Source of the DNA: a virus
Length of the DNA stretch: 64,000 bases
Strand: one strand, 5' to 3'
Virus record (IMG/VR): IMGVR_UViG_3300038558_000079
Location: 26,555 to 90,554 of that record
A model generated the notes under the pieces. That model made no database searches. It was not told where the DNA came from and saw only the letters and a program-made list of their open reading frames with translations. Positions 3,535 to 56,350 of this stretch are shown one piece after another. Made by a program: the position numbers and the translations under genes. Every line of letters starts with the position of its first letter. The first letter of the stretch is position 1.

Positions 3535-4000
3535 TTATTGCTGCTTTCTTTTTATTGGCGGCATCAATAATTGCGTTGCGAGTTTCACCTTTTACCCATA
3601 CCTCTAAAGAGTCAATATCTTCAGTCTTCCTTACCAGGTCAAGAGCAACTGTATCCTTAAAGTGTCTATATCCCGGTGAAGATGAGTCTGGTGAATCGCT
3701 GGGTACTATTTCAATAGCTCCAATCTTCACTCTGTAGGCTACCATCGGATCTGAAAGTGCGATTTTCCAAGTATCCGCTGACACTTGAAGATTACAACCC
3801 GGTCTTAGGGTGAAACCAGGCTGAAAGTCAGCAGGTAATCCCTTTTCCTTAGTAACAGGTGGTCGTTGCCAACTGAAAGGGTAAACGTTACCATTCTTGC
3901 TAGGATTCATTATCGACTCATAAGAGTCTGTCGGTTGAGATTCCTTTTGAGGTAAATAAACTAGAGCTACCCAAGCGCTCATTGTGGCAGTTTCTGACAT
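3506..4000 (-). CDS. hypothetical head-associated protein
   Basis: Directly follows the capsid gene; 164 aa. Confidence 0.5.
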   Translation of the reverse strand: MSETATMSAWVALVYLPQKESQPTDSYESIMNPSKNGNVYPFSWQRPPVTKEKGLPADFQPGFTLRPGCNLQVSADTWKIALSDPMVAYRVKIGAIEIVPSDSPDSSSPGYRHFKDTVALDLVRKTEDIDSLEVWVKGETRNAIIDAANKKKAAINAELLKRAA

Positions 4001-23800: not shown

Positions 23801-26800
23801 TTTTGAGCGGCTTCATTACTAGCTTTCTGACGTGCTAATTCTACTTGACGATCGCGTTGTTGTTCGGCACGTCCGGTGACATCTGATATAGCAGTATTGC
23901 CTCTAGTCGCTATACTACCTGGTGTCCAGACGGTTGGGACTGGTGTGTTTGCTACTTGAGGTATTTGTACATTTGCGGTATTATTAGGAGTGTTTTTCTG
24001 TTGTGTAGGTAATCCCCCCTTCAGATAACTCACTAATTGATCTGCTAAACCCGGATTCCGCTTCCACCCATCATCTACACCTTGCCAATTTGAACCACCA
24101 AGTTTATTTGCTTGCATCCATCGAATAAGATCAGCGCCATCTTTAATGCGACCCGACTGAACAGCCTCGATAACTTTACTACCGTAATCGCCAATCCCTT
24201 TCTGTGAATTAGGTAAACGACGTTCACCAGCTAATATTTGCCCAAAGAAGTTCTGGTATTTCTCAGGAGTATTGATTATTTCTTTGTGATAGGCATTATT
24301 AAATTGTCCAAACCCTTGCATATTGTTGCCTGTACCACCTTTATAGGTGTAGAAAGCACGGCGGTTTGTACCCTTCTCAAATGCTTCAGATCCACCTATA
24401 CCTAATGCAAGCACTAACCTCCCACGACCTTCAGCAGTAGACGGGTCAAAATATTTATTCTGACTTAATTGACCACCCAATTCGTTCAGAGCCTCGTACC
24501 CTTTGCCTAATTTTGGAGCGCCACCTTGATTGACAACCCTCTGGGGTATATTGGGTGAGACAGAAGTATTTCTCCCCTGTAGCTGAGAAACAACATCATT
24601 ACTTGCAGATGTAATTTGTGAACGGTTTCGTGTACTGTCGCCTTGGTTTTTATAAGCAGTAATAATTACTTGCCTACCGTTAATATTGGCAAGTCCTACA
24701 TTTCCCGTAACCCGGCTATTATTACCTATTTTTCCCCCTGATTCACCACTAAAGCCAAAATTCCTAGTTTGTCCTAAAGCCGCCCTTGCAGTATCCGCAG
24801 CACCACCTTGATTAATTTGCAAATTTCTCATTGCTTTTGTTACATCGGCTGGTGTAGACGTGTTGCCAAAAGCATTAGTAGCACCAGGGATACTCAAATA
24901 ATTCCGAATTTGAGTCCCTGTAAAACCTCGTTTTTGTGCTTGTGCTGTAGCCGCTTCTGTACCACCCAGTATGCCAACTAAAGCGTTAAAACTTGTGTTA
25001 TCAGAATCACGAAGCATACGAGTCATTAAATCTCGTATAGAAACCTTCTGACCGGCTTGTATTGAGGAGCCTTCAGCTACCTGGTTTTTCGCAATAGTCA
25101 CACTTTGGTCTAATGATACTTTTCCCTCTTTAATTGCAGCATGTATCAAATCGGCGGCAATTAACTTTATAGTTGACGCTGGTGAACTTGGGGCTTGATT
25201 TGCATTATATGTACCTAATATCTCTCCACTTTTTACATCTTGTACCAAGAGAGAGTTTAGCCCATATTGACTTGCTATTTGTGAAGCATTAATGCCTTGG
25301 CGTTGAGATTGATTCTGTTTTACTTGTGTTGCACTTCCACCGTGATTATGCCCATCACCAGGATGATGTTGTTCAATTTGCCCTTTTTGTGCTGAACTTA
25401 AACCTCTACCATTTCTACCTGCTAAGAACTCAGTAGGGTTAACATTCTTCCCATTAATCCATGTTTCGTAGTGTAAATGCGCCCCCGTACCAATCCCCGT
25501 TGAGCCAACTTTACCAATCTTGTCACCAGCATTTAATTTTTGTCCTTCCACCACATCATAAGCCGACAAGTGGAAAAACTTATGCTCAATTTTACGACCA
25601 TGCTCATCGATTGACTCGACTACAACATATTTACCAGCGCCACCAGCCTGATACTTGACACCAGTAACTACCCCTGCCATGGGTGATACCACTTGTGTCC
25701 CTTCACCATACCCGTAATCTTGCCCACGGTGCATTCGTGTTTGTCCAGTTACTGGATGCCGTCTCATCCCCCAAGGGCTAGTTTTTCTACTTTCGGCTTG
25801 TGCTGCGGTAACACCTGCTATCGGAAAGACTGGTTGGCTTGCGTTCCCTACGGGTGGTTTTTCACCTATACCTAAAGCATTCTGAACAAAACCAATACCT
25901 TGCTGTACAACATTACCAGCAGTCTGCATTGCACCTTGTCTAAAGCTAACGACGCTCTGGGTTACACTTTCAAGTTGTTGACCCCAGCTATTAAATATTT
26001 GTCCAATGATATTTAGAATGGGGATATTGTTAGCAAAAGTGCTAAACCAATCCACTGTATTCTTAATAATTTCCTGAATGCTAAGAGGTAGTGAATCCAG
26101 GGCTACCTTAAGCTCGTTCTCAATCACTCCACCAACATTACTGATCTCAGTGCCCCAATTAATAGTAGCTGCTGTCACATTGCCAGTTGCCTCTAAAGAT
26201 GCGAATAGACTATCATTTGTAGCAATAACGGCATCATTATTACTATTGATACTATCGGTGTTAGTCTCGATCGCAAAACCTAAATCAGAAGCTGTAAAAG
26301 TGGTATTAAGTAGTTCTGAGCCTAATCCCTGAGTTGCATATATCCCATCTTCTGTAGTAGCTACTGTCTGCTGGATAGTATCGCCAAAGTCCAGACTACC
26401 TAACGTTACATCTTGAAATGCAGACGTTAGGTCATTTGTAGCACTCTCACTATCCTTTATAGTGTCTTTAGCCTCTAGTAAGCCATTATTGAAAGCCTTA
26501 GTGATATCAATAAATTTATTATCTATCCCTATCTTACTCAAGTCTAACTCTATCGGGATTGCTGGGATATCAATACTACCTTTAGCTGAAATACCAGGTA
26601 ATTGTCGGCGTAATTCCTCACCCTGTCTTAGGGAATCTTCAAAAGCATTATTAGCCTGTAATGCAGCACTTCCTACATCAAACTGTTTATCGGCGGCTTC
26701 TGAGAGTTGTTGGATACTTTCTATTACCGAATCTGCAAATTGAGATACTATATTATCCTGAAACCCAGAAATAGAAGTTTTGATATCGGTAGCATAAGAC

Positions 26801-29800
26801 TGTATTTTTAACTGGCTAGTTTGACGTTGTGCCTCAAGACTAGATTCTGCAAACTGTCTAGATGCACTACGGTAATATTCTTCTATTTGTTTGTTTAATT
26901 CGACTAACTTTTGATTAAATTCATACTTACCTTGTTCTACTCCAGCTTGTAGGTTAGAAATTTCTACAGAACGCTCTTGAAGTGCTGCATACTGGTCAAT
27001 AACATACTTGTCATTAACTCTCTCACCTGCTTTTTCTGATATAGTCTTAAGTTCAGCGCGTCCGGTATTCTCAGTAATACCATAGGCTTGTAGTGTATTC
27101 TGAGCATCCTTATTCTGCAACAGCGCTTTAGTCTGTGCTTGTGCATCAAGTAAACGCTTAATTTTTGCCTCTTGCTGTTGAATATCAAGTTCGCTTAAAC
27201 CAAATTGCAACTCCCCCTGAGTCTTGGAATTAGTGTATAAGCTGGACTTTAAAGTATTTCCTGCAACAGTAGCCTTATCTTCAGCATCAGCTAATTTATC
27301 AACTACACCTTGTATGTTTTTCTGCATTAATGAGAAAGCATTAACAGATTCGCCAACAGCGCGATTAAATTTATCTTGTGCTTTCTGTGCTGACGTTAGA
27401 TCGCTTTCTAGTCCTGCTAGTACATTCTTATATTGCGCCTGATTCCTACCAGGTTCATTGGCTAATTTTTGATATTTCTCAATCTCCTTTTTGAGCATAT
27501 CAACATTAGTCTGCATATTGGACTGTAATATTCCAATAGGTTTAGATATTTTTTCTCTCGCCTCTAGTATTTTTGTTTGTTCATCATCAATAACTTTAAG
27601 TCCAGCCTTATCTTGAGGATTTATAGCTACTAATGCCGCGCGTCGTGTCTGTATCTGTCTGAGTTGGTCATCATACTGCTTTAATTGTCCCAACTCTCTA
27701 ACACCTTGCCCCTTGGTTCCTAAGAGGCTTAATGCTTCTGAAGTTGTAGCATTAACACCTAAGCTTAAGTCAGATGTGGCATTAATGTTATCTCCCAACT
27801 TCTTGTCTTCATAGGTTGAACCCACTCTACCACCTGACAGTTTTTTAAGTAAGTTTGCAGGCGACTCGATTAAACCTGTAACTGCTTTCCCGGTTCCAAA
27901 TCTTAACTTATCAAACCAGTTAGCATCAGCTTTAATTTCCTTGGGTAATAACGCACCTATCCCCATTGCATCTAGCAAGGATTCATCGCGTACTAGCTTA
28001 GTAGCTTTAAATTTTTCGGTTTCCCCTCTACTTTCTGCTAGCGCTTCCCTGTACTTTTGCAAACTCTCAGTAGCGGTATCGGCAAAGTTCCTAGAATCTC
28101 CAGAGGCATCCTTGAAAGCAGCACTAATGCCTTCAAATACTTTCATCCCTACTTCGATTACTACGAACATAGTTAGCATAGGTGCGAGCGCTGACAGCAA
28201 TGCCCTAGCACCCGATGCTAATCCTATAAATCCCGCAACACCATTGATTAGCGCCGCTTTACCAAATGCCCTAACTCCAATAGCACCTCTAGTAAAATTA
28301 GCACCAATGTTAGAAATTCCATTTTTCTGTAGGCTTAGTAGTCCACCATTTAACGCTGACAATCCACCTTTCGCATTATCCAGCATAGCAACGCCGAAGT
28401 TCTTAGCACTTGACAGGACATTACTAGCACCCGATCTTAGAGATTGTACCGGGTTAGCTCTAATGTTCTGTAACGTGTCTCCTATCCCGTCTACTAGTTG
28501 TGTGGCCTTAAGTTTGTTATCACCATTTCCTAGTATTTTCTGGAATGTTCCCATAGCGGCACTTGCTGCACTCGCAACACCCGGAATTTTCATTAACGCA
28601 GCGGTTAACGCTCCAAAAGATTGGAATAGGTTAACTCCAGCCATTACAGCGAGCGCACGAAAAACACCTAGCAGAAAATCTGCGTTTTCAGTCACAAACT
28701 TGATAGCTCCGCTACCTAGTGCTAATAGCAAATTTTTGATTGGTAACAGTGTCTTGCCAATTGTTGCTTGCATCTGAAATAACGCATTATTGAAATTTAT
28801 TAATGCAGACACTGAACTATTAGCCGCTCCTTTGACACCCATCGCAGTTTCGGCGCTTAGTTGTTGAGCAAACTTAGGTAGAAAATCTTCTGACAGTAAC
28901 TTACCTTGACTCATCATCTTGTCTAGAGTTTGTGTTGTTACACCTATCGCTCTAGCTGCAATGTTGAACGCACCAGGTAAAACTTCTCCCAATTGTTGTC
29001 TTAATTCCTCAGCGCTTACCTTGCCTTTTCCAGCCATTTGTTGGACAGCAGCAAAAACTCTACTCTGTTGTTCTGAATTCAAGTCATAAACAGTGCTAGC
29101 TTGTGATACACCACTAAATATCTTCTGTGTCTGACTTTCCAGTGCGGTGTCCCGCGTTGCAGCCCCTAATGAAACATATCCTTCCATTGAGGACTTCATG
29201 TCGGTTCCCAAACGCGCCGTTTCCCCCCTAACAAATGCCAAGCTATTAGCAGCCTCTTGAGCATTGTTGCTGATAAATAGGAATCTACGCTCTAAAGATT
29301 CCATGGCTATAGCGGCTTCAATTGATGCGGGTGCAATGCTGGTTATTATATTCTGGAAAAATTGTACCCCTTTAAATGCCAGGAAACCACCTACTAAACC
29401 TTTAAGACCATCTATCAAAATGCCAGCAATACCGCTTCCTTTAAATAGCGCATCAAAGAATGTATTTACTTGTGGTACTGCAACATTGAGAGACTTGAAG
29501 ATATCTTGAGTTGCAATATTTAACTCTTGTAACTCTTGGGTTTCTTCAGGGGTTATCGTAGTCTTGCGAGTTAATTCTAAGGCTCTATTATTGTTAGCTA
29601 CTAATTTATCTTTATAGACTAATAATCTATCCGATTCTTCTTTGTCCCCTCTTAATTCCGCTTCATTAGCCGATACTACCAGGTTAGCAATTAAGGACGG
29701 CGTGTGCATCTTTAATATCTCTGTCTGTTTCCTAACCCTAGCTGCTATGCCACCAAACAAATCTGCTAGTGCTACCCCAACAGAATTAGTAAATTTGTTT

Positions 29801-32800
29801 CCTGCGTTTTGTGTAACCTGCTGTACTTTCTCAGGACTAATAAGAGGAGAAGTATTAACTACATTACCTTTTAATTCTTGTTTGTCTAAAAGTTTTGCAT
29901 TTTCCAAATAAACTTTTAGGCTTTCTAATTCGTGTTGTGACAGTTCTAACTCATCACCAGACTGTATGCTTGCTTCGGCTTTTGCCAGAAGTTGCTGGTA
30001 CTCTACCTGTCTTTCCTCAAGGTATTTTTGAGCCGCTTCAAATTGTTGCTTCTCATGCTCATCGAAGCTAGCCATAGCTTTATCTATATCGCTAGTTGTT
30101 CGATTTGCTGAGGCATTATAAACATGAGACATAGCAGCAGCAGCATTGGCATTGGCTTTATTACTCTGGCTTATACTGCGTCTGTTCTCTAGGTTGCCTA
30201 CAATACCTTCTACTTTCTGTTTGCCAGTTTCTACCATTTTTTCTGTAAAACTTGGCACAGTATTTACAGCGTTAATACCTTTATTAAACCCTTCTACTAC
30301 AAAGCGCCCTAAACGTTCAAATACCTTAGATGGACTTTGTATCTCCAGTTCTTTTTTAGCCGACTTTGTAACACCTTGCGCTAACTCAATAGATGCAAGT
30401 TCAGCACTTGGTATCGACTTTTCAATACCTTGACTTAACCCTGTTCCTAAGTTCTCTAACCCATAACTTTGAGCAAATTTAGCATCCCAATCATCGATGT
30501 CTCCAGTTTGCACATCAGGAGTAATATCTTCTAAGTCAATATTTGCCGCTTCCTGTGCAAGTAAGCTATCCCAGTCATAATCATCTATTTGTTTTGCATA
30601 ATCATCAACAACTACCTTTGTCCCTTGTTCTATTGATTCCGCTATCTTATCAGGGACAAAGCTTAAATCCTTGGATAACTTGGGGTTTATAGGAGTTTCT
30701 TTAATTACCTGTTGATGGATCTCAGGTACTTTAATTTCAGGAATTTGCTCAACTATCGGGGATTCAATCTCAGGTATTTTAATCTCAGGCAATTCAAGCG
30801 AATCAGTCCCAATATCACCGAGGACAAAACCCTCTATATTTTTAATAATACCACTTAGCTGTAAGCTTGCACCTTTAAGATATTTCTTAACACTATCTTC
30901 TAAGTCTCGACTCAATAATTCCTGAATTGTTTGGTAGTCATCTTGGATTTCCTCAAAGCTAATCTGAGGAATTTCCTCTTGTTTGATAGCATTCAACGCA
31001 CCCCGCGCCGCTGTAATTCTACCCTGTAGATGCGGCTTAAGCGCATCAGGTGTGGTAACTAACTGATCGGTCTTAGAGATGATACTTTTTTGGTGTGGTG
31101 TAAGTTGTGGAATTGTTGACCTGAGTTTTTTGAGGTCAACGTTGTTAACTAATCTTGCCGCTATTTGTTCCTTAGTACCACTTGAACCAACACCATGGCT
31201 TTTGGCTATATTTTTTAGCTCATCCTTGCTGGTGTAACTACCTGTAAGTTGCTTCAGTAAATCCTCACGGCTGCCACCTAATAACTCGGTGTGTACCTTG
31301 TTAGCAAATTGGCTAGCACTGAATGTTGTCTTTTCAATTAGAACCTGTAAGTCTTTATATAATTTATCCAGTTCATCTTGTGGCAAAATATCTATATTTT
31401 TAAGTCTCTCTAGATAAGGCTCAAAAATCTTATATAGATTATCAAATTTTGCTTCTAATAATTTCCCAGTCCCAGATGTGTCATAGGTAGCGTTCTTATT
31501 GTTCTCTATTAGTTGTTTATATTGCTCTACTTGTATTTTGCCTAAATCGTTTAAGAGTTTACCTCCTCCGCTACCTGCTAGTTGCCCAATATTGCGGAGG
31601 CTTGTCTTTCTTTGGATATTAGATATTATTTTCTCTCTATTTCTGTTCGTAAAAACGTAAGCGTCTTGTTCTATTTCTCTAGAAAATGCTTCTCGTTCTG
31701 TATCCCCCTTAAAATTACTTGCCGATCCTTCCACCCTTCGCGCCAACTTTGGATCTAGTTCGTAATCTTCTACCGTCGGCTTGAGTAATTTACGCGCCGA
31801 TTTTAGCTCTTGGAATAAATCTATTTTACCAAAATCGCTTTGCATCCCATGTGTAAGTTCATGGATCAATGTCTCTAAATTTTCTGGTGTTGCATTCCCC
31901 TTAATGAGTTGTGCCAATACATCTTTCTGTACTTTTAAAACGTTATTCTCGCTAGAATAAAACCCCGTTGCCTTTATCCCCTTCTTTTTATAATCTTCAA
32001 TTTCTTCATCCGAAAAAGCCTTCAAGGTAGGAATTTGCTCAGGACTTATACTAATTCCAGCTATAGCCGCAACTTCATCTATAACATCCTGATACTGTTT
32101 AGGTTGTTTTTTGACTTTCTTGGTTGTACCACTAGTTTTTCCCCCCCGCTCTAGTGCTTTAATAGCATCATCAGCTTGCTTCTCATACACCGTAACCTGA
32201 GCATTCATGGCTTCCATTAACTTCAATGCAGAAGCCATTTCTTCTTTACTGCTAAAGTCCAAAGTCCTGAGTTTAGCAAATAATTTCTTATATTCCGTCC
32301 CTATATTTTTAACATTTCCAGTAGAAATAGTTTTCTGAATTTCCGCTATATTATTCCTACCTCCAGAATTCTTAACTACAGTTGCTTCTGCTAAGGGCAC
32401 TGATGCTTCTGCTCTCTGTATGAAAGCTAACTCTTGTTTGTTTAACCTTTCAAGATCGGCCTTCACATTAGTGATTAAATTTTCTAATTCTTTCCTGTTA
32501 AGAACTTCTTTTTCGATAAGAGCTTTTGCTGCTAAGATGGTATCATCATCAGAATCAGATAGTGCATTCTTAAGTGCCTCTTGATATTTCAATACTTTCT
32601 TATTAGAGGCTTCCAAGACTTTCTCTGCTTTAGTAAGTTTGGTGTTCAAGTCTTCACGTTGCTTACCAACAGCTTCTTTCTTCTCACTTATAGCGAGGGT
32701 GCGTAATATTCTAGCACCTTCTAATCCTTTAGCACCTTTTACACCGACTAGATCTAAAAGATGTTCTAATTTTTGTTTCTCTCCACCTAACTTTTCTACC

Positions 32801-34431
32801 CTCTCCCTGACAGCCTCTATCTGCTTTTCTACTTCGCCTAACTGTTTCGTTTTAGCTTCTAAGTTAGCACCAAGCATTCCCTCTTTTTCCGCATCAGTGC
32901 TACCTCTGAATTGCGTTAATTTTGCCTGATTTTCAGATAGTACATATTTGCTCGCATCTTCACGCTTACCTAAAGACTTTAAATCTTCAATCGCAAAAAG
33001 CTTCTGATTACGTTCTGTTTCATTTAACCCCTCAGTGACTTCCTTTTCCTCGAAAGCGGCTATCTTTTTGGCAGTCAACGCTTTCTGTTTCTGTATCTCA
33101 ATTAAGCCTGCTTTCTGAGTTTGAATGGCATTTTTAAAATATTCTTCGCCACGCTCAGTTACACTTTTCCCCATATAGTCAGCTAAATTCCGCTCTAACT
33201 GACTTCTGTAAACTTCTAATCCCGCTAACTCATCCTCACTTTGTTTTCTCTGGACTTCATTTAACCCTTCTCTACTAAGTGATTCCTCATACTCTATTCC
33301 TAATTCTTTAGCGGCGGCTTCATTACGTCCGGTTTTAGTAACTCTCTTGCGTCCGCTTAATAATCTTTTTTCAATCTCAATTTGGTCTTTGCCGATAATA
33401 GATTGGACACGATCTATTGATTCATCTATTGTCTTTGCCAGACTTGATTCGCTATACCCTTTCTGTATAGCCCGTACTACGGGTGCTTTTGTTATTGCCT
33501 CTCTTATCCCTGGAACAATTCGCTCGAAAATTGAACGTCCTACTAAATCCAACGAGCCAATCTTAGAAGATAGTGCAGACTCTATAGAATCTGTTAATCC
33601 TTCAGAAAACTTAGAAGTAATCATTCTTCCAAAGTTTTCTGACGCTCCTACAAATATGTTGTCAAAAATACCTCTATTCTTGGTTCTTATTTTCGATGCG
33701 GTTGATTGAACTCCTGAACTGTCACTCTTAGTTGCTGAAGTGGTTGTAGTTGTTCCTGGAGTGCTAGTGTAACTTGGTAATGTAGCTGTTCCCGAAGTGT
33801 TACCCGGACTTGGTAGTGTGGCTGTTCCCTGTGGTATGTGCTGCGATAACCCTGGTGTTACTGGCGATCGCGATACAGTAGGCGTTAAGAAGCTTGTAGA
33901 ACCTACTCGGTTGCTACTTTTTTGCTGTGAATTAGTTATATTCTTAACAACATTACTAATTTTATCAGATGCGGTATCAAAACTTTTCTCAATACCGTCT
34001 TTTAAGGTTACACTTATCTTCTCCCCTTCGCTTTGCTTTATTTCTGCCTTTACCTTTACCTTTGTCTCTAATTGTTCTGACAATCCTACAATCTGTTTTT
34101 TAAAGCTAGCCTCATTAATTGGATCCGTTGTAGTTCTGATTCTTAATGGATTCTTCTCAAGCCACGCATTAACATCTTTAACATGTGTACGTTTGGATTC
34201 TATATGCTTATTGAGTTGAGTTAATGGGACATCATCAACTTTAACTTTAACTATTAAGTCTTGGCTTAGTGCTTTTTGAAGACGTTGCCGTTCCTGTGCA
34301 ATATTGGCATTATCAAAACTAACCCCAAGCTTGACAACTGGAGTTTTCACACCTGACAACGACCCCAGTCCCTGATAGAAACCACTGAGATCTAACTTTG
34401 TGCCAATATCAACTGAGGCAATCCTAACCAT
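20878..34431 (-). CDS. giant multidomain tape measure protein (4517 aa)
   Basis: Tape-measure motif QMAGKGKVSAEELRQQLGE, SPSKVF motif, long coiled coils; HELTH, M23 (HRGQD..HLHYE) and SxxK/SDN domains. Confidence 0.9.
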   Translation of the reverse strand: MVRIASVDIGTKLDLSGFYQGLGSLSGVKTPVVKLGVSFDNANIAQERQRLQKALSQDLIVKVKVDDVPLTQLNKHIESKRTHVKDVNAWLEKNPLRIRTTTDPINEASFKKQIVGLSEQLETKVKVKAEIKQSEGEKISVTLKDGIEKSFDTASDKISNVVKNITNSQQKSSNRVGSTSFLTPTVSRSPVTPGLSQHIPQGTATLPSPGNTSGTATLPSYTSTPGTTTTTSATKSDSSGVQSTASKIRTKNRGIFDNIFVGASENFGRMITSKFSEGLTDSIESALSSKIGSLDLVGRSIFERIVPGIREAITKAPVVRAIQKGYSESSLAKTIDESIDRVQSIIGKDQIEIEKRLLSGRKRVTKTGRNEAAAKELGIEYEESLSREGLNEVQRKQSEDELAGLEVYRSQLERNLADYMGKSVTERGEEYFKNAIQTQKAGLIEIQKQKALTAKKIAAFEEKEVTEGLNETERNQKLFAIEDLKSLGKREDASKYVLSENQAKLTQFRGSTDAEKEGMLGANLEAKTKQLGEVEKQIEAVRERVEKLGGEKQKLEHLLDLVGVKGAKGLEGARILRTLAISEKKEAVGKQREDLNTKLTKAEKVLEASNKKVLKYQEALKNALSDSDDDTILAAKALIEKEVLNRKELENLITNVKADLERLNKQELAFIQRAEASVPLAEATVVKNSGGRNNIAEIQKTISTGNVKNIGTEYKKLFAKLRTLDFSSKEEMASALKLMEAMNAQVTVYEKQADDAIKALERGGKTSGTTKKVKKQPKQYQDVIDEVAAIAGISISPEQIPTLKAFSDEEIEDYKKKGIKATGFYSSENNVLKVQKDVLAQLIKGNATPENLETLIHELTHGMQSDFGKIDLFQELKSARKLLKPTVEDYELDPKLARRVEGSASNFKGDTEREAFSREIEQDAYVFTNRNREKIISNIQRKTSLRNIGQLAGSGGGKLLNDLGKIQVEQYKQLIENNKNATYDTSGTGKLLEAKFDNLYKIFEPYLERLKNIDILPQDELDKLYKDLQVLIEKTTFSASQFANKVHTELLGGSREDLLKQLTGSYTSKDELKNIAKSHGVGSSGTKEQIAARLVNNVDLKKLRSTIPQLTPHQKSIISKTDQLVTTPDALKPHLQGRITAARGALNAIKQEEIPQISFEEIQDDYQTIQELLSRDLEDSVKKYLKGASLQLSGIIKNIEGFVLGDIGTDSLELPEIKIPEIESPIVEQIPEIKVPEIHQQVIKETPINPKLSKDLSFVPDKIAESIEQGTKVVVDDYAKQIDDYDWDSLLAQEAANIDLEDITPDVQTGDIDDWDAKFAQSYGLENLGTGLSQGIEKSIPSAELASIELAQGVTKSAKKELEIQSPSKVFERLGRFVVEGFNKGINAVNTVPSFTEKMVETGKQKVEGIVGNLENRRSISQSNKANANAAAAMSHVYNASANRTTSDIDKAMASFDEHEKQQFEAAQKYLEERQVEYQQLLAKAEASIQSGDELELSQHELESLKVYLENAKLLDKQELKGNVVNTSPLISPEKVQQVTQNAGNKFTNSVGVALADLFGGIAARVRKQTEILKMHTPSLIANLVVSANEAELRGDKEESDRLLVYKDKLVANNNRALELTRKTTITPEETQELQELNIATQDIFKSLNVAVPQVNTFFDALFKGSGIAGILIDGLKGLVGGFLAFKGVQFFQNIITSIAPASIEAAIAMESLERRFLFISNNAQEAANSLAFVRGETARLGTDMKSSMEGYVSLGAATRDTALESQTQKIFSGVSQASTVYDLNSEQQSRVFAAVQQMAGKGKVSAEELRQQLGEVLPGAFNIAARAIGVTTQTLDKMMSQGKLLSEDFLPKFAQQLSAETAMGVKGAANSSVSALINFNNALFQMQATIGKTLLPIKNLLLALGSGAIKFVTENADFLLGVFRALAVMAGVNLFQSFGALTAALMKIPGVASAASAAMGTFQKILGNGDNKLKATQLVDGIGDTLQNIRANPVQSLRSGASNVLSSAKNFGVAMLDNAKGGLSALNGGLLSLQKNGISNIGANFTRGAIGVRAFGKAALINGVAGFIGLASGARALLSALAPMLTMFVVIEVGMKVFEGISAAFKDASGDSRNFADTATESLQKYREALAESRGETEKFKATKLVRDESLLDAMGIGALLPKEIKADANWFDKLRFGTGKAVTGLIESPANLLKKLSGGRVGSTYEDKKLGDNINATSDLSLGVNATTSEALSLLGTKGQGVRELGQLKQYDDQLRQIQTRRAALVAINPQDKAGLKVIDDEQTKILEAREKISKPIGILQSNMQTNVDMLKKEIEKYQKLANEPGRNQAQYKNVLAGLESDLTSAQKAQDKFNRAVGESVNAFSLMQKNIQGVVDKLADAEDKATVAGNTLKSSLYTNSKTQGELQFGLSELDIQQQEAKIKRLLDAQAQTKALLQNKDAQNTLQAYGITENTGRAELKTISEKAGERVNDKYVIDQYAALQERSVEISNLQAGVEQGKYEFNQKLVELNKQIEEYYRSASRQFAESSLEAQRQTSQLKIQSYATDIKTSISGFQDNIVSQFADSVIESIQQLSEAADKQFDVGSAALQANNAFEDSLRQGEELRRQLPGISAKGSIDIPAIPIELDLSKIGIDNKFIDITKAFNNGLLEAKDTIKDSESATNDLTSAFQDVTLGSLDFGDTIQQTVATTEDGIYATQGLGSELLNTTFTASDLGFAIETNTDSINSNNDAVIATNDSLFASLEATGNVTAATINWGTEISNVGGVIENELKVALDSLPLSIQEIIKNTVDWFSTFANNIPILNIIGQIFNSWGQQLESVTQSVVSFRQGAMQTAGNVVQQGIGFVQNALGIGEKPPVGNASQPVFPIAGVTAAQAESRKTSPWGMRRHPVTGQTRMHRGQDYGYGEGTQVVSPMAGVVTGVKYQAGGAGKYVVVESIDEHGRKIEHKFFHLSAYDVVEGQKLNAGDKIGKVGSTGIGTGAHLHYETWINGKNVNPTEFLAGRNGRGLSSAQKGQIEQHHPGDGHNHGGSATQVKQNQSQRQGINASQIASQYGLNSLLVQDVKSGEILGTYNANQAPSSPASTIKLIAADLIHAAIKEGKVSLDQSVTIAKNQVAEGSSIQAGQKVSIRDLMTRMLRDSDNTSFNALVGILGGTEAATAQAQKRGFTGTQIRNYLSIPGATNAFGNTSTPADVTKAMRNLQINQGGAADTARAALGQTRNFGFSGESGGKIGNNSRVTGNVGLANINGRQVIITAYKNQGDSTRNRSQITSASNDVVSQLQGRNTSVSPNIPQRVVNQGGAPKLGKGYEALNELGGQLSQNKYFDPSTAEGRGRLVLALGIGGSEAFEKGTNRRAFYTYKGGTGNNMQGFGQFNNAYHKEIINTPEKYQNFFGQILAGERRLPNSQKGIGDYGSKVIEAVQSGRIKDGADLIRWMQANKLGGSNWQGVDDGWKRNPGLADQLVSYLKGGLPTQQKNTPNNTANVQIPQVANTPVPTVWTPGSIATRGNTAISDVTGRAEQQRDRQVELARQKASNEAAQNTANALRASNKAFLDLERELRQNGIKVSSLSNQVTDTNLEYKGALDNEQKRQQEQRQLETKYTELENSIVEQKRAIESQIGTARVLLSKGGVVSPEMREKVQKLIDDPTIKENLREQLRTALTTGVLGDDGKNILNRAVTEGEDQLKKLTIGLENVRKGREESKKLLDDRFAAEEKARKQQASFDIENASIDTLKAKLDQLQQLKSTAPFSPDVKGIPDLEALISAREEQLNLEKQLKGIQDKEKAKEYTKEEADRLRAEIGERKKILDVTLKQKTENAKLAFLRESEARDREARQELVQAEIANDKVRIEQLKTLAQTNPLSPELANNAIGELEKRVALREAELQLAQELAAIEQAGFEGKRTPEEITKLNAEKQSEYDVKIQNINAQAQQTAFASQISQSKVILSIKEQELQYQKQIVDTTTQAINLGLQQGDPIKLKFEVDKKELEISVEKQILDMKEFANSTGKSQEEIAELELRIRELNNLTLDNLKGEFDKALAQRTETISQRVSGSQVELLETQASFYSNRGMTNKARTLQRDSAILQQQSAYRGQKIELEEFIRTTQVGAIEADKLRQNLEQINQVKLDTVKDNFNAFKPVIDTVQTGLKGFFAGIIKGGQSIEELFNGLMDSILGSVAEIASNYLVEKLFGGLLGGNKNEGQGGMFEQGDSGDTNPLSLLDGGSELGTTPVLPVYVNVVNGNTFGGLNNGTLGSMFGGKEDSTTSFLASTFSGFTGKVDSANPVPVGIIKSAPDALSPITNALGSFFSGKGGFGSIVSGIGSLFSGDGKNSGGGGIGRILASVSGMVGGGGLGGIVGIASSLLGSFFWNGGIVGNYAQGGIIDAIDREKSLNGGRGVAIAALTHGERVLNLAQTQNLDKLGGVDILNFNDGGMVGYVPKTTEYGGSADKVIENASRPKDINVKLETQVINGVEYLTKSQGEDLARKAAQQGAEQGAKYISDRMLNSPSYRATHGI

Positions 34432-44773: not shown

Positions 44774-44851
44774 AGAGTTTTTGCCAAGCGCCAAAATCAA
44801 AGCCTAGCTGTGGTATAGTGGTGATAACACGATAAAATCTTCTGTAAAACT

Positions 44852-45811
44852 ATGAGTAAAGCTTTAGTACTATTCGCGGGGATTGGTGGTTCAACATTAG
44901 GACTGAGGTTGGCTGGATTCCAGACTTTAAGCATAGAAATAGACCCCGATATAGCTGAGATTCACAAACGGAATATAGGAGAATGTCAAATCGCTGACAT
45001 CTTGGAAGTTAACCCATTGCATATTAAGATAGGGATTGGTATACCTGATGTAATATTCCTGTCACCACCCTGTCAGGCATACAGTAGGGCATCAATTGGA
45101 AAAGGGAAAGCGACCAGTAAGAATAGAGAAGACAGGGATATATTATTAGAATTAATAGCTAAGGGTTGGTTTGAGGTTTTAGAATCACCTTATGTGGTTT
45201 TAGAGAACGTGCCAGAATACAGGAAGTCTAAAAGTTTTTACCGATGGTGCAATCATCTAATCGGACTAGGATACACTATTAGGTATGACATCTTAAACGC
45301 TTATGACTTTGGTATCCCGACAAAACGCTTGCGGTTGTTCGCAGTTGCTAGTAAAGGAGATTTACCTATCATTAAATGCCCCTACAGGCATGTAGGGTGG
45401 CATAGTGTTATCGGGCAATTGATAGAGGAAATGACTGACTCTAGTCTAATCCCAGTACAAGAAAAGTATGTGTTAGACAATGAAGTAGAATATCCTATTC
45501 TTATAGAGAGAGTAGGCATCTATAGTGGTAAACCTAAAGTAGCGTTAGCCAGTGAACCAATTTGGACTATTCGTAAAAGTATTGGTAGCGATGGCAAGGG
45601 TGCAAATAGGAGCAAATTTATTAATGTAGTTGATGGTAGCACTGTTAAGGACTTATCGGTACAGGGTTTAGGAATGCTTCAGGGTTTTCCCGCTAATTAT
45701 CAGTGGGGAGAGAGTCCTGGTGTTGCGGTAGCAGGGATTGGTAATAGTGTATGTCCCCCATTAGCGCAAGCGATTGGGAATAGTATTAAGGAGGTATTAT
45801 GCAGCAGATAA
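44852..45811 (+). CDS. C5 DNA cytosine methyltransferase (orphan)
   Basis: LFAGIGG, SPPCQ, ENV, RxR, GNSV motifs. Confidence 0.92.
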   Translation: MSKALVLFAGIGGSTLGLRLAGFQTLSIEIDPDIAEIHKRNIGECQIADILEVNPLHIKIGIGIPDVIFLSPPCQAYSRASIGKGKATSKNREDRDILLELIAKGWFEVLESPYVVLENVPEYRKSKSFYRWCNHLIGLGYTIRYDILNAYDFGIPTKRLRLFAVASKGDLPIIKCPYRHVGWHSVIGQLIEEMTDSSLIPVQEKYVLDNEVEYPILIERVGIYSGKPKVALASEPIWTIRKSIGSDGKGANRSKFINVVDGSTVKDLSVQGLGMLQGFPANYQWGESPGVAVAGIGNSVCPPLAQAIGNSIKEVLCSR

Positions 45812-46296
45812 TTGGAATAGATCCGGGTGAGAAGGGCGCGATCGCTGTTCTCAATGTAGTAGAAGGTGTGGTATGTGTTGATGCGGTATACGATATGCCC
45901 TCTAAGATTTCAGAATTGGCGGCAATAATACGGGGTATCTCAACTAATAGTCACGCCTGTATTGAATCACCTTTCACTAATACCAAAGGTGACGCTGACA
46001 AGGAGTTGGCAAAACTTGTCAGGAAACTGCCATTACTAGCCAATTACAACCGGATTATCGGGATGTGTGCGTTTCATGGTATCCCGATCCAATCAGTAGC
46101 ACCCAAGACTTGGCAGGCTACCTTTGCAGTGACGGGAAAGCGCAATGGACATACAAGTATCGCGCAATGCTTAAAGGTGTTCCCGGAATGCAGCGCTCTA
46201 CTCATATCAGAAGGGCATCACTACGATGGACGCAGTGATGCCCTTCTGATTGCTAGGTGGAAACACCTACAGCTAATGGCTAAAAGGAGGTACTAG
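45799..46296 (+). CDS. RuvC-like Holliday junction resolvase
   Basis: IIGIDPG, CIE, PKTWQ, DGRSDALLIA. Confidence 0.85.
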   Translation: MQQIIGIDPGEKGAIAVLNVVEGVVCVDAVYDMPSKISELAAIIRGISTNSHACIESPFTNTKGDADKELAKLVRKLPLLANYNRIIGMCAFHGIPIQSVAPKTWQATFAVTGKRNGHTSIAQCLKVFPECSALLISEGHHYDGRSDALLIARWKHLQLMAKRRY

Positions 46297-46625
46297 ATAC
46301 GTCCTTCGCTGCGCACCCTGTCATCAAACGCGGCATCTAAATCTAAAAGCCAGAAACTACGTGGTAGCTCTATTAGGTTTATGGGGTCATTTCTCCCCGG
46401 TTGAAACTCCGGGGACTCGATCGCCTCAATAGAGACGATATGAATCCCTGGCATGTCGGCTGCTACCTGTGCTTTTTGGGATTCCGTTGAACTAAGGAAA
46501 ACCTCGCTTAGGTACTTCATTCTCAATGGTAGTTGAGATACACTAGATATTTTTATCCACTTTGGAGTTAGCCACGACAGCTTATCTACTACTGTTTTCG
46601 TTCTTTCTGTATAGTAAATTTTCAT
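46293..46625 (-). CDS. hypothetical protein (own promoter)
   Basis: 110-aa ORF downstream of TTGACA-17-TATTGT. Confidence 0.6.
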   Translation of the reverse strand: MKIYYTERTKTVVDKLSWLTPKWIKISSVSQLPLRMKYLSEVFLSSTESQKAQVAADMPGIHIVSIEAIESPEFQPGRNDPINLIELPRSFWLLDLDAAFDDRVRSEGRI

Positions 46626-46648
46626 TGTCTATTGCCTCTGTTGGTTAT

Positions 46649-46683
46649 ATCACCACAATAACACGGTATTGTGGTGATGTCAA
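46649..46683 (-). promoter_or_regulatory. promoter overlapped by 12-bp inverted repeat (operator-like)
   Basis: ATCACCACAATA-6-TATTGTGGTGAT spans the -35/-10 spacer and the -10. Confidence 0.65.
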
Positions 46684-46727
46684 CTATTTTTAAAATAATT
46701 CTCAAAACTTGTCAGAGTCTTAAGAAA

Positions 46728-46764
46728 AACACCTCGCTAAAAAGTAATTCTAGCGAGGTGTTAA
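46728..46764 (-). terminator. terminator after csx3
   Basis: AACACCTCGCTA..TAGCGAGGTGTT hairpin with T-run on the minus strand. Confidence 0.65.
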
Positions 46765-46787
46765 CAGTTGCTATTATCTTTATGTCA

Positions 46788-47114
46788 CTACGGCAAGTCT
46801 ACAGTAAGAACGTCTCCAATGTTCACATTTGGGGTACGAGTGGCTACAATCACAACACCTAAACGTGGATCGTAGCACCCTAGCCAAGGTGCAAAATGAC
46901 AACATTGGTTGACTAAATACCCGTATAGCCAAATTGGAGCTTTCCCCTCAATGACAATACCTTTTGAAAAATCTATACCCTGTGGAAATTTTACCCCTTT
47001 AATATCGCTGGGTACAATTACACCACTTTCGTTGACAATTTTGACACGTAGGAGTTGGCAAGGTAACCCGTCATGGGTTTTATGGGGAATGGCTTGAAGT
47101 TCAATTGCGCTCAT
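46788..47114 (-). CDS. csx3: Csx3/Crn3 ring-nuclease homologue
   Basis: GIVIEGKAPIWLYGYL..H...W..CYDPRLG.V.VAT is the cyanobacterial Csx3 signature. Confidence 0.85.
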   Translation of the reverse strand: MSAIELQAIPHKTHDGLPCQLLRVKIVNESGVIVPSDIKGVKFPQGIDFSKGIVIEGKAPIWLYGYLVNQCCHFAPWLGCYDPRLGVVIVATRTPNVNIGDVLTVDLP

Positions 47115-47146
47115 GGATTTTTCGCCTCGAATGTTAATCTAAACAC

Positions 47147-47175
47147 ATTATAACACCTACTACCGGAAATGTCAA
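47147..47175 (-). promoter_or_regulatory. perfect consensus promoter of csx3
   Basis: TTGACA-17-TATAAT. Confidence 0.85.
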
Positions 47176-47366
47176 TAACTAGGATATCACGTTTCGCAAT
47201 AACATAGTCAAAAAAATATCACTACAGCAGTACCAATACTGTAGTGATGGGCTAACCCGAATTAGTTCCCTCTCATAACTTATACTTCCTACCCGTTCCA
47301 GAGGTTGGAAATATTCTGAGGTTCAAATCTATTATAACAACTACAATTGTTATAATAGCCCAATAC

Positions 47367-47543
47367 TTAATCCCTGATAATAGTGAAAGTCGCATTAAGA
47401 TTCGCGATTCCACGTCGCAATGCGTGAATGTCAGGATAAGTAACATATCTTAACTCTTTGTTCCAATACCCCTTGGGACACAGATACATTTGGGTGACTT
47501 TATTTTGGACAATTGCCTTCACTGAGTCTGATGACGGTTTCAT
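47367..47543 (-). CDS. 58-aa hypothetical protein (missed by ORF track)
   Basis: MKPSSDSVKAIVQNKVTQMYLCPKGYWNKELRYVTYPDIHALRRGIANLNATFTIIRD*; AAGGAG RBS; TTGACA-17-TATAAT at 47578-47606. Confidence 0.65.
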   Translation of the reverse strand: MKPSSDSVKAIVQNKVTQMYLCPKGYWNKELRYVTYPDIHALRRGIANLNATFTIIRD

Positions 47544-47608
47544 ATAACGAATTCACTCCTTTGCTGTTTTCAGTACTATTATAATATACCACAGCGCGAA
47601 TGTCAATA

Positions 47609-47665
47609 GCACTAAAAAAACTTCCTGAACCTACACGTTACGGGTTTAGGAAGTTTTTTTAGTGC
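47609..47665. terminator. long hairpin terminator
   Basis: GCACTAAAAAAACTTCCT..AGGAAGTTTTTTTAGTGC. Confidence 0.65.
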
Positions 47666-47674
47666 CACTAATGA

Positions 47675-48496
47675 CTACAGCAGTTCAAAATCACTGCGCA
47701 CGAGAAAAAGTTCAACGGGGATATCATCAGCCTTGACGCGCCAAGGCTTCTCATCACCATCAACATACCCAGTCACCTTGCCGACCATCGCTGACCCGTA
47801 GGCACTGGTCGTGATTGTCTTACCTATCAGTAAGTGTGGCGACTCCGCATCGTCTTGTGGCGCTAATTCGAGAGTTTCCTTATCTAGTACCGACTCTTGC
47901 GGCTGCACTTTGGTATCAACGATTGGGATAAGATTCTCATCGATATTCAGTGGTACGAATTGCCCACCTGCTACTGGTGGAACCTCAAAGTTCATAACGG
48001 CAATAGTAGCTACATCTTTCAATGTAGCATTCCAACCTACTAGCAGATACCGTCCTTTGACAGGTGAATCTTTGAGATTATCTACTATCTCGATAGTGCC
48101 TTCTGAGGGATACTCGGATAGCAAGTAATTTCTCCACACCGATGTAGAATTCTGGTTGTCTCCCTTCACGCGGCGATAATCAATGCCGCAAAAATACGTG
48201 TAACCGTCTGCATCTTTCTTAGCACCAAACCGCTCTTGTAGCATCACAACCCCATTAAAGTCTAAAACTTTTTCAGGTGTTGGAGATAGGTACTTCTTAA
48301 GATGTGTAATCACCTGGTTTACAATGAAACGTTTTCCGTCATCTGATTGATTACTCAATTCTTCATCAAGGTAGGAGATGACTCTCTCCAATACTTCAGA
48401 ATTTTCCTGTGCAGCTTCTACCAGTTGTGCTAATTCTCGGTAGCGTTTTTCGGCTTGCTGTAGTTCTTTTTCGAGTTCACTAATGCTGTTAGTCAT
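47675..48496 (-). CDS. hypothetical protein (N-terminal coiled coil)
   Basis: 273-aa ORF with AAGGAG RBS. Confidence 0.65.
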   Translation of the reverse strand: MTNSISELEKELQQAEKRYRELAQLVEAAQENSEVLERVISYLDEELSNQSDDGKRFIVNQVITHLKKYLSPTPEKVLDFNGVVMLQERFGAKKDADGYTYFCGIDYRRVKGDNQNSTSVWRNYLLSEYPSEGTIEIVDNLKDSPVKGRYLLVGWNATLKDVATIAVMNFEVPPVAGGQFVPLNIDENLIPIVDTKVQPQESVLDKETLELAPQDDAESPHLLIGKTITTSAYGSAMVGKVTGYVDGDEKPWRVKADDIPVELFLVRSDFELL

Positions 48497-48533
48497 GCGA
48501 TTCTCCTTATTATTTAGGTATCTTTATTATACC

Positions 48534-48833
48534 CTAATCGCCATCTTCTAGCAATATCTTTCCAGATATTACAGAATTCATAATTACATCTAAAACTTCT
48601 GATGGCTCGAACCCTCTCTCCCTTACCCATGCCGCAAACTTAGCACGGATGTTTTCAGAACCAGCGTCTTTATGAACGTATTCCCCTTCGTTCCAGGCAT
48701 TGATAAATCCACCGATAACTGCACTCTGGGTTAATCGTTGTTCCCGGCATTTCTGTTTGAAAGTATTGAATTCGTCTTCTGTCACTCTAAGACTAGCCAT
48801 TAGTGGTTGTCTCTTAGTTGTCTCAGTTGTCAT
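48534..48833 (-). CDS. tandem ribbon-helix-helix DNA-binding protein
   Basis: SLRVTEDEFNTFKQKC..TQSAVI and a second IRAKFAAWV..PSEVL unit. Confidence 0.6.
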   Translation of the reverse strand: MTTETTKRQPLMASLRVTEDEFNTFKQKCREQRLTQSAVIGGFINAWNEGEYVHKDAGSENIRAKFAAWVRERGFEPSEVLDVIMNSVISGKILLEDGD

Positions 48834-54997: not shown

Positions 54998-56350
54998 ACT
55001 ACCTACACCAACCTGAGTACAGGTATGGTGTAGGCTTTCAGCAGCCCTGTACCAAATCGAATAAACTAGGTTGGAAGTACTCGACTTTCCGACATAATTC
55101 ACACGATAGGTACGAACCTCTAGGCTGGCTTACGGTCAGCCCCAAAAGTTTGATTACGTTGGCTCCATTAAAATCGGCATCGCCCTTCCAGTGGCAGTGT
55201 CCACAAGAGAAAGTCTTGCCACTACGGTAGGACTTTCCTTTTATTGGATGGATGTGCAAACACTTGTGGCAAGTCTGGCTTGTGTAGGCTGGATTGACTT
55301 TGATAATTTCAACTCCAGCACCAAGAGCTTTGTAGTCCAAGAACATTCGTAACTGAAAAAACGCCCAACTGTTAGATCGTCTGCGTTCAGTTTTGTTTCT
55401 TGGTTGCTCGTTTGTACGCTCTCGAATTCCTGTTAGGTCTTCGAGGGCAATTGAGTATTCAAACTGTTTTGCTCTACTAACAATGTGCTTACTGACGTTA
55501 TGGTTGACCCATGACTGGAAGCGCCTCTCCCGACCAGATAACCGTTGCAAAATCTGCCTAGCCCTACGTCTAGTTGACCTTGTGCCTTCTGTAGCCTTCT
55601 TTTGGAGAGATGCTCTTACCTTTGAATATTTGTCTCGAATTTCTGTTATTTGTTGTCCCGAAAAACTTTCGGACTCACTGGTTACAGCTACGTCTCTACG
55701 CCCAAAGTCCACCCCAATTACACCTTGGGATTTTTGAGGACTTGGAGCTTCATTCTTTACCTGAATATTGACCGAGTAAGTACCATTTTGATACTTAACC
55801 AGTGTTGCCGATGTTGGCGTAAAACCAGATAATTTTCCTTTCTGGTAACTACCAACATCAACTAGGAAACGCTCTCTCCCACCAACTAACGTTAGCGACA
55901 CTGACCAATCTTTCTCTCTAAAGGAGAAAATTCGTGCATCGTAATCAACAGAGGTTGGGAGAAACTTTTTAACGGGTTTGCTCATTCGCTTCGCTGTTTT
56001 GCGATTGGCACTCACCCGATTGATAGCACGGATAGCAAGGTTGGAAGCTAGCCCAAAACGTTCCCTCACTTCACCATAAACCTGATTTTGGATGGTTACG
56101 TTGTGGGTAATCTTGGGTTCTACAGCTTCGTTGATATGGTTGCAAGCACCCGCAAACGCTTGAAGGGTCGCATCTATCTTGGCAACCTGTTCGGGAGTCG
56201 GATTAATTTTGCAGACTATCGTCAACACTTGCTTTTCCATACCATGATTATATCACTGCAATGATTATTTGTGTCGCGCTACATCCTGTCCGCAATTCCT
56301 CTCATCACCAAATCGGAGATTATGGCGGGAGCCTCCTTGCGGTTGAAGGT
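54994..56350 (-). mobile_element. IS200/IS605-family element, tnpB only (IS1341-like)
   Basis: Right-end hairpin GCCTACACC..GGTGTAGG ending TTAC at 54994; left-end hairpin at ~56290-56345; left boundary approximate. Confidence 0.75.
55038..56240 (-). CDS. tnpB: TnpB RNA-guided nuclease
   Basis: RuvC D (GVDFG), E (IALED), D (DADFNGA); Zn ribbon TSQTCHKC..CGHC. Confidence 0.93.
   Translation of the reverse strand: MEKQVLTIVCKINPTPEQVAKIDATLQAFAGACNHINEAVEPKITHNVTIQNQVYGEVRERFGLASNLAIRAINRVSANRKTAKRMSKPVKKFLPTSVDYDARIFSFREKDWSVSLTLVGGRERFLVDVGSYQKGKLSGFTPTSATLVKYQNGTYSVNIQVKNEAPSPQKSQGVIGVDFGRRDVAVTSESESFSGQQITEIRDKYSKVRASLQKKATEGTRSTRRRARQILQRLSGRERRFQSWVNHNVSKHIVSRAKQFEYSIALEDLTGIRERTNEQPRNKTERRRSNSWAFFQLRMFLDYKALGAGVEIIKVNPAYTSQTCHKCLHIHPIKGKSYRSGKTFSCGHCHWKGDADFNGANVIKLLGLTVSQPRGSYLSCELCRKVEYFQPSLFDLVQGC

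Follow-up and report, generated by a model that had tools for sequence, protein, structure and literature searches.

A 64,000-nucleotide stretch of virus DNA, referred to as the window (bases 26555-90554 of the linear, 90,554-bp IMG/VR virus record IMGVR_UViG_3300038558_000079), encodes a small Csx3 protein, P0001, in a gene of its own. By sequence P0001 is a member of the Csx3/Crn3 ring nucleases, and it departs from them in two defining features, the histidine triad of the active site and the neighborhood of cas genes. It belongs to a branch of phage Csx3 proteins in which the face that contacts cyclic tetra-adenylate (cA4) is kept and the histidine-bearing face is rebuilt. With fair probability, judged from sequence, the phage csx3 gene acts against cA4 signaling by the type III CRISPR systems of its host. 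The gene is placed as follows:

46788..47114, minus strand: csx3/crn3 coding sequence for P0001, 108 aa, with an ATG start at 47114, taken from the open reading frame list and family profiles

Family membership and active-site residues

The original prediction had recognized a 108-residue Csx3 from the letters of the DNA, and this identity was confirmed by profiles and structure chains. P0001 matches Pfam PF09620 (Cas_csx3) over residues 29-103 with 98.5 bits (cut-off 21) and NCBIfam TIGR02579 (ring nuclease Crn3/Csx3) with 91 bits (cut-off 55.4), and it aligns to the A. fulgidus Csx3 (AfCsx3) chains 3wzi, 6vjg and 6yud with an E value of about 5e-12. A Pfam scan of P0001 at E up to 1 returned Cas_csx3 only, with no match to DUF1874 (AcrIII-1/Crn2). 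The likeness to A. fulgidus Crn3/Csx3 (AF_1864; 3WZI, 6VJG, 6YUD) and to M. mazei Csx3 lies in the family, in a length of about 110 residues and in the stand-alone form.

Published work is cited here from excerpts of the papers concerned. In AfCsx3 two neighboring dimers hold cA4 between them, one by its D69 face and the next by its H60 face, and most of the cA4 contacts come from the D69 face (PMC7371418). The H60A and D69A mutants were inactive and R71A and H80A highly reduced, but mixing H60A with D69A restored activity; the active site is formed by two dimers (PMC7371418). H57 and H60 are the likely Mn ligands, and the three histidines H57, H60 and H80 were called absolutely conserved; the H60A protein still binds cA4 between stacked dimers, forming a pseudo-filament (PMC7371418). 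The cA4 turnover rate of AfCsx3 is close to that of AcrIII-1, and over-expressed M. mazei Csx3 partly relieves Csx1 immunity (PMC7371418).

Residues were mapped by a pairwise alignment of P0001 with AfCsx3, in which the chain index equals the numbering of PMC7371418 plus 6, as checked on I22, S44-G45-R46, I49 and R71. Residues I33, E56, G57, K58, I61, N69, H73, D82, R84 and R93 of P0001 thereby correspond to I22, S44, G45, R46, I49, H57, H60, D69, R71 and H80 of AfCsx3, respectively. The D69 face is kept, with G57, K58 (lysine for R46), I61, D82 and R84 in place; the S44 position is a glutamate, as in all cyanobacterial members. In the 54 sequences of alignment A2, G57 and D82 do not vary at all, and I61 and R84 are conserved in at least 90%. 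The triad, in contrast, reads N69/H73/R93, with H57 replaced by asparagine, H80 by arginine and H60 alone retained, and the phage protein has one extra residue between two of the histidine positions (QCCHF versus EC-HP). The altered histidines (LVNQC and VATRT) beside a retained central histidine and YDPR, which had been pointed out at the outset, are thus borne out by the alignment.

A phage clade with a remodeled histidine face

A collection of 158 small Csx3 proteins, 144 of them distinct, was drawn from protein clusters, IMG/VR, metagenomes and species genomes, and ten key columns were read in each. The residues at H57, H60, D69, R71 and H80 are canonical in 131 of the 144. Eleven of the 13 deviant sequences lie on one branch, and the other two are isolated cellular proteins, P0040 (H60 to I) and L064 (H60 to Y). 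A phylogeny in search of a phage-specific clade had been suggested in the original prediction, and such a clade is what the trees contain. In a quick tree of 141 rows the 11-row branch had a support of 87 by the SH-like approximate likelihood ratio test (SH-aLRT), within a 13-row clade at 97; in a careful tree of 54 rows it had an ultrafast bootstrap of 96 and an SH-aLRT of 92. With the seven trait columns removed from the 54 rows, support was 85/90 and the branch was present in 83% of the bootstrap trees. Fragments shorter than 95 aa were excluded from the quick tree, with L002 and L003 as exceptions, and so was L026, whose match of 16 residues is due to chance; the careful trees used the 54 rows of A2, a subset of the 144 chosen by the author. 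The clade nests inside cyanobacterial Csx3, where its nearest canonical sequences are P0005 and a protein of Limnofasciculus (L027).

Within the 11 rows the H57 position reads N, H, H, Y, Y, H, A, A, G, W and W; the H60 position is H in seven, then Q, T, T and T; and the H80 position is R in eight and H in three. Every member lacks at least one histidine of the triad, by one of two routes, either an arginine at H80 or the loss of both H57 and H60. The cA4 face is preserved throughout, with EGKAPIW intact in all 11 and YDPRLG in 10, the remaining member (P0002) reading YDPCLG with a cysteine for R71. The 41 cellular rows of A2, by comparison, conserve H57 in 100%, H60 in 98% and H80 in 100%.

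The trait is rare in the wider family. A profile search of 1.84 billion representatives gave 729 members at E up to 0.001, and the 148 new ones among the best 150 were examined. A length of 80-150 aa is found in 74 of these 148; of the 74, 58 have the canonical residues and 2 have arginine at H80, some of the other rows being gapped fragments. Searches with P0038 and P0022 added a single clade member, P0209, of the A/Q/R type.

Five of the 11 distinct clade sequences lie in the phage slot described below, on available DNA, and none was seen in a cellular context. P0004 shares a 90% cluster with the L004 protein, and P0022 would also belong in the slot; genomic context was unavailable for P0002, P0006, P0015, P0038 and P0209. 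P0002 (78% identity to P0001) and P0006 (69%) each come from a JGI contig of 2520 bp; should this be a single contig, that phage would carry tandem csx3 copies.

These substitutions bear on whether the phage protein is simply a fully active viral ring nuclease that cleaves cA4 as fast as AcrIII-1, with N69 and H73 holding Mn2+, R93 taking over the ribose/phosphate contact of H80, and the changes being neutral or rate-tuning. That account is possible if rather doubtful. It agrees with the presence in P0001 of H60, D69 and R71, whose loss abolishes or strongly reduces activity (PMC7371418), with the invariance of H73 in the six closest alleles, and with the AcrIII-1-like turnover of AfCsx3. It has to contend with the highly reduced activity of H80A and the proposed role of H57 as an Mn ligand (PMC7371418), both residues being fully conserved in the 41 cellular sequences of A2. 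Sister alleles of the slot that lack H60 (T in three, Q in one) are still under purifying selection, and fast autonomous catalysis therefore cannot be the function of the whole clade.

A fixed slot and old alleles

The csx3 gene occupies one slot in at least five related phage contigs (the window, L004, L005, L009 and L023), in which the order is always orf58, csx3, RuvC (convergent) and methyltransferase. The H57/H60/H80 positions of the slot alleles read N/H/R (window), Y/H/R, H/H/R, G/T/H and A/Q/R. In the window the neighbors are:

47367..47543, minus strand: orf58, 58 aa, the conserved upstream neighbor of csx3 in L004, L005, L009 and L023
46293..46625, minus strand: orf110, 110 aa, a variable one-gene accessory cassette between csx3 and RuvC
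45799..46296, plus strand: RuvC-like Holliday junction resolvase (phrog_1770, E 3.9e-21), the fixed right-hand border of the slot
44852..45811, plus strand: cytosine DNA methyltransferase (phrog_116, E 1.5e-49), beside RuvC in all sister contigs

L004, part of an 84.1-kb contig, shares 84-88% nucleotide identity with the window over about 20 kb including csx3, and L005 (5.6 kb) shares 90-93%; L009 (2.5 kb) and L023 (1.9 kb) show the same neighbors as the window csx3, including the end of a gene for a 273-aa protein. In the sister contigs amino-acid identity is 88-91% for RuvC (164 aa), 93-97% for the methyltransferase and 74-88% for orf58. A 5628-bp contig from a further public run is collinear with the window over 44805-48600; the same contig has 1309 extra bases between the methyltransferase and RuvC (window 45807/45808), probably an inserted mobile gene. 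In length it equals the contig recorded for P0022, with which it is probably identical. The slot DNA came from wetland, aquatic and freshwater metagenomes of several studies.

Selection was estimated by the Nei-Gojobori method on the five alleles. The ratio of nonsynonymous to synonymous substitution (dN/dS) of csx3 is 0.17-0.42 in 10 of 10 pairs, which marks a selected protein-coding gene that is not decaying. The corresponding values are 0.11-0.26 for ruvC (10 pairs), 0.08-0.15 for the methyltransferase (6 pairs), 0.15-0.18 for the 273-aa gene (3 pairs) and 0.26-0.84 for orf58 (6 pairs). Of the genes of the block, csx3 is also the most divergent, with 42-80% amino-acid identity versus 88-92% for RuvC. 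Compared with the window allele, csx3 of L004 and L005 has a dS near that of the flanks (0.44-0.59 versus 0.16-0.45) and a dN about 2-3 times higher, and csx3 of L009 and L023 has a dS of 1.07 and 1.73 versus 0.24-0.38 in the flanks. By this measure the distant alleles long predate the backbones on which they now sit, which points to a swapping of old alleles by recombination at the csx3 slot. Diversifying or balancing pressure would then act on csx3, as at other counter-defense loci. The original prediction had described a host off-switch captured by the phage; the capture is consistent with the nesting of the clade in cyanobacterial Csx3 with Limnofasciculus as the nearest canonical relative, but it should be corrected from a recent one-off event to an old phage-borne lineage.

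The slot also decides against csx3 as a passenger, that is, a fragment of host DNA or an artifact of binning or assembly with no role in infection. The closest canonical relatives of P0001 are indeed cellular, and the GC content of csx3 (43%) and its GC3 match phage and host DNA alike, so that composition does not discriminate. However, at least five related phage contigs, of different sample origin, have this slot filled, with a conserved promoter and a dN/dS well below 1, and no clade member is among the best 80 of the 222 species-genome matches, which makes the passenger explanation, already disfavored, highly improbable.

Searches for further carriers of the slot were made in several collections. 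Among 50,697 isolate phage records no match was found by tblastn with P0001 or by megablast with 6 kb, the window's own record possibly lying outside that set. In IMG/VR, a scan with P0001 by itself found nothing, a scan with the neighboring RuvC found no other relative, and a scan with alignment A1 found just two distant short Csx3 proteins, on the unrelated high-GC contigs L002 (471-746, 91 aa) and L003 (9905-10195, 96 aa). The slot census thus rests on metagenome contigs. The L002 and L003 proteins score 77 and 81 bits with Pfam and have the full H57/H60/H80 triad; csx3 of L002 sits between an excisionase-like helix-turn-helix gene and a gene for a Sak4-like annealing protein.

The window and L004 have orf110 between csx3 and RuvC; L005, L009 and L023 lack it, and in the last two csx3 directly abuts RuvC. 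No Pfam or PHROG family was found for orf110, whose best ESM Atlas score was 0.89 (an unnamed viral cluster; lead level 0.9). In L005 an element of about 60 nt (3896-3960) stands in place of about 510 bp 3' of csx3, comprising the terminator and orf110, and by this replacement the L005 Csx3 gains a 9-residue tail; several copies of the element, 97-100% identical, lie within the first 14 kb of the phage record. For orf58 no Pfam family was found, and the best ESM Atlas score was 0.80 (lead level 0.9). Its dN/dS of up to 0.84 and its own consensus promoter and terminator are recorded here as a side observation; orf58 may be a second counter-defense gene or a partner of csx3.

Expression signals

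The signals around csx3 and its upstream neighbor are:

47147..47175, minus strand: csx3 sigma-70 consensus promoter, with TTGACA at 47175-47170, a 17-nt spacer and a TG-extended TATAAT at 47152-47147
47125..47128, minus strand: csx3 ribosome-binding site GAGG, 10 nt before the ATG, conserved in L004 and L005
46718..46762, minus strand: csx3 intrinsic terminator, a 15-pair GC-containing stem at 46762-46728 followed by the T-run TTTTCTT
47218..47248, minus strand: orf58 terminator hairpin, which sets orf58 apart from the csx3 unit and is conserved in the sister contigs
47578..47606, minus strand: second perfect TTGACA-17-TATAAT promoter, which drives orf58

Since the upstream gene orf58 on the same strand has its own terminator, csx3 forms a monocistronic unit of a single gene. 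A perfect match to the 29-nt promoter pattern is found at only two sites in the 64-kb window, upstream of csx3 and of orf58; with at most one mismatch the count rises to 9, where 0.67 would be expected, a count not reached in any of 100 shuffles. From this excess it follows that the phage uses a set of host-type consensus promoters, of which csx3 has one of the two best. The csx3 promoter was found in all five slot contigs: the -35 hexamer does not vary, nor does the TG that extends the -10, and the -10 itself, which retains TA...T, differs between contigs at inner positions only. The promoter scan and the hairpin thus agree with the stand-alone cassette, perfect promoter and own terminator described in the original prediction. 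An Rfam scan of 46000-48000 gave no match at gathering score, and the leader was found to be without a lone CRISPR repeat. Among the sequencing runs that contain the stretch no RNA run was listed, which bears on expression in neither direction.

The phage record and the search for cas genes

The phage origin of the DNA, assumed at the outset, was verified by the IMG/VR record and by its structural and replication genes. PHROG matches in the record include a major head protein (E 1e-45), a head maturation protease (6e-64) and a DNA polymerase (1.6e-284), as well as ribonucleotide reductase, a primase/replication protein and a Dda-like helicase; genes for a helicase, a DNA methyltransferase and the RuvC-like resolvase adjoin csx3. 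The record is 71% complete by CheckV estimate. No match to the tyrosine integrase family PF00589 was found in this partial record. A single 4517-codon open reading frame (window 20878-34431, minus strand) presumably encodes a giant tail or tape-measure protein.

The absence of cas genes and of an array, noted at first for the window, was extended to the entire record, from which about 29% of the genome is missing. No family of 20-mers repeated at a spacing of 45-100 nt was detected by a script over the whole 90,554 bp, and a six-frame profile search of the whole record gave no match to RAMPs, Cas10/Cmr2, Cas10/Csm1 or Cas1, in which control genomes did give matches. A CRISPR locus may lie in the missing part. 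As in the anti-CRISPR class, then, csx3 is virus-encoded, stands outside any CRISPR locus so far as the record extends and is retained in related viruses, and with respect to AfCsx3 it differs in being phage-encoded and in having no cas neighbors.

Cellular relatives and the host

Among 5.8 billion protein clusters 54 relatives were found, all annotated or scored as Csx3, and those with names came from filamentous cyanobacteria. A relative is encoded in 222 stretches among 185,579 species genomes. Nearly all of the 80 best come from cyanobacteria, with 53-70% identity; Limnofasciculus baicalensis gave the top match (70%), and no member of the phage clade is among these 80. Cyanobacterial small Csx3 proteins have an N-terminal extension and the motifs EGKAPIWLYGYL and CYDPRLG in common with the phage protein.

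The cellular small csx3 gene is usually followed directly by a gene for a protein of about 300-330 aa in which a Csx3 domain at the N terminus is joined to a P-loop domain, a fusion termed 'Csx3-prime' or Csx3-AAA (PMC7371418; PMC8284326), the function of which is not known (PMC8284326). In Chroococcus (L037, 10001-18165) and Aphanothece (L099, 10001-17445), csx3 and csx3-AAA are followed by Cas10/Csx10/Csx7 (type III-D) and a CARF protein, so that the cellular homologues are true type III accessories. The cellular small Csx3 proteins, encoded upstream of csx3-AAA, retain the triad. The phage took, or kept, the small gene by itself. The Csx3 domain of Csx3-AAA is mostly without the triad (H57 in 3 of 34, H60 in 7 of 34, H80 in 6 of 34, and arginine at H80 in 10 of 34, by a low-identity, uncertain alignment). 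The pair may constitute a sensor with its off-switch. In Limnofasciculus (L027) csx3 adjoins mutS2 and not cas genes, on a contig that starts 126 nt upstream.

A TnpB-type gene (OrfB_IS605, Cas12f1-like TNB domains) at 55038-56240 of the window is 83% identical to a Limnofasciculus baicalensis contig over 905 nt, and a 39-nt end of the element (window 55002-56240) recurs at 87-97%, mostly 95-97%, on more than 20 L. baicalensis contigs, at the ends of many of them. From the shared TnpB element and the csx3 phylogeny, the host would be a Coleofasciculaceae-like filamentous cyanobacterium. A spacer search with 19.9 kb of the window against five cyanobacterial genomes gave no spacer-like match and found csx3 and the TnpB element only.

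The pairing of csx3 with csx3-AAA raises the question of whether the phage protein targets host Csx3 or Csx3-AAA, its D69 face stacking on the host H60 face and its altered face ending the stack, so that the assembly is capped or poisoned, or cA4 is cut in trans. The two-dimer active site and the restoration of activity in the H60A and D69A mix (PMC7371418) would permit this, as would the habit of cyanobacterial small csx3 genes of directly preceding a csx3-AAA whose own Csx3 domain mostly lacks the triad; moreover, the 70% identity of P0001 to a host-type Csx3 would be sufficient for the two to form mixed oligomers. The idea is nevertheless improbable, being purely inferential about a Csx3-AAA whose function is not known (PMC8284326) and drawing on a low-identity, uncertain alignment of the fusion domain, and blocking the host off-switch by itself would prolong immunity rather than weaken it.

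Proposed function

A mechanism is proposed in which the phage gene counters type III signaling by removing cA4 from circulation. Host RNA polymerase would read the consensus promoter upon DNA entry and produce a short monocistronic csx3 mRNA, the timing being suggested by the promoter. The small phage Csx3 would dimerize like cellular Csx3 and bind cA4, the messenger made by Cas10, through its D69 face (E56-G57-K58, I61, D82 and R84), keeping it away from the cA4-activated effectors of the host. In the cellular protein the H60 face brings the Mn-binding histidines onto the ring bound by the next dimer; in the phage lineage this face is rebuilt, so that cleavage would be slow or altered and sequestration of cA4 between stacked dimers would do much of the work. 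Slow or altered cleavage is what N69/H73/R93 on the H60 face would lead one to expect, and residual or altered catalysis is possible in the window allele, in which H60 is kept. As the H60A mutant of AfCsx3 binds and stacks, the T and Q phage alleles should bind cA4 without cutting it on their own. The suggestion of altered kinetics or of binding only, made in the original prediction, is strengthened in that the sister alleles lose the essential H60 yet keep the cA4 face. A stoichiometric cA4 binder under a consensus promoter is a plausible weapon.

Put in its fullest form, and tentatively, the clade would represent a natural half-site Csx3, with a frozen cA4 face and a histidine face dismantled in at least two ways, whose members would act as stacking sponges or as caps or partners of the host Csx3/Csx3-AAA assembly, rather than as self-sufficient ring nucleases, and whose old alleles would be shuffled among related cyanophages at one anti-defense slot in an arms race with type III-D systems.

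Several points weigh against the proposed anti-type III mechanism. The changed residues were placed on one face by the pairwise alignment with AfCsx3, which covers residues 33-105 only; H60 is kept in P0001 and in seven of the 11 clade members; and an arginine could replace the hydrogen-bonding role of H80 and so leave a normal fast nuclease. The phage record is only about 71% complete, and that the true host has a type III system signaling through cA4 is deduced from relatives.

Relation to known viral proteins and significance

The role proposed for phage Csx3 is the same as that of AcrIII-1 (DUF1874) and AcrIII-2 (viral SAVED), namely viral removal of cA4 against type III effectors (PMC7371418; PMC12751052), but in fold and family these proteins are unrelated to phage Csx3, which matches Cas_csx3 only. 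In its possible mode of stoichiometric cA4 capture, phage Csx3 resembles Csx15, to which it has no sequence relation. Csx15 is a filament-forming cA4 sponge with very slow cleavage, its site is shared between head-to-tail stacked dimers, and it was not found in phages, as stated in the excerpts of PMC13148439.

In a survey of 28,114 phage genomes, AcrIII-1 was found in 36, Csx20 in 4 (5 in the preprint) and Csx16 in 2, after manual removal of matches without absolutely conserved residues (PMC12409355). A phage Crn3 is not named in the text of that survey as excerpted, and its supplementary tables of phage ring nucleases may bear on the point (PMC12409355). Before the viral SAVED protein only one viral ring nuclease was known (PMC12751052). 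Full-text literature searches on Csx3 with cyanophage and phage-related terms returned no phage Crn3. Phages are also known to carry sponges for cyclic nucleotides, Acb2 and the Tad-type proteins, which may share the mode of action of phage Csx3 and have no sequence relation to it.

The characterized viral families that destroy cA4 number two in the literature surveyed, AcrIII-1 and AcrIII-2; if the proposal is true, the phage Csx3 lineage would be a third viral anti-cA4 family, and the first case known to the author of a cell's two-faced off-switch captured by a virus. The five or more natural slot alleles form a ready-made mutational series for the shared-active-site model of Csx3, and this series can show whether sequestration by itself beats type III signaling in cyanobacteria. 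Phage Csx3 also gives an approach to Csx3-AAA, the so far unexplained partner in type III-D loci of cyanobacteria.

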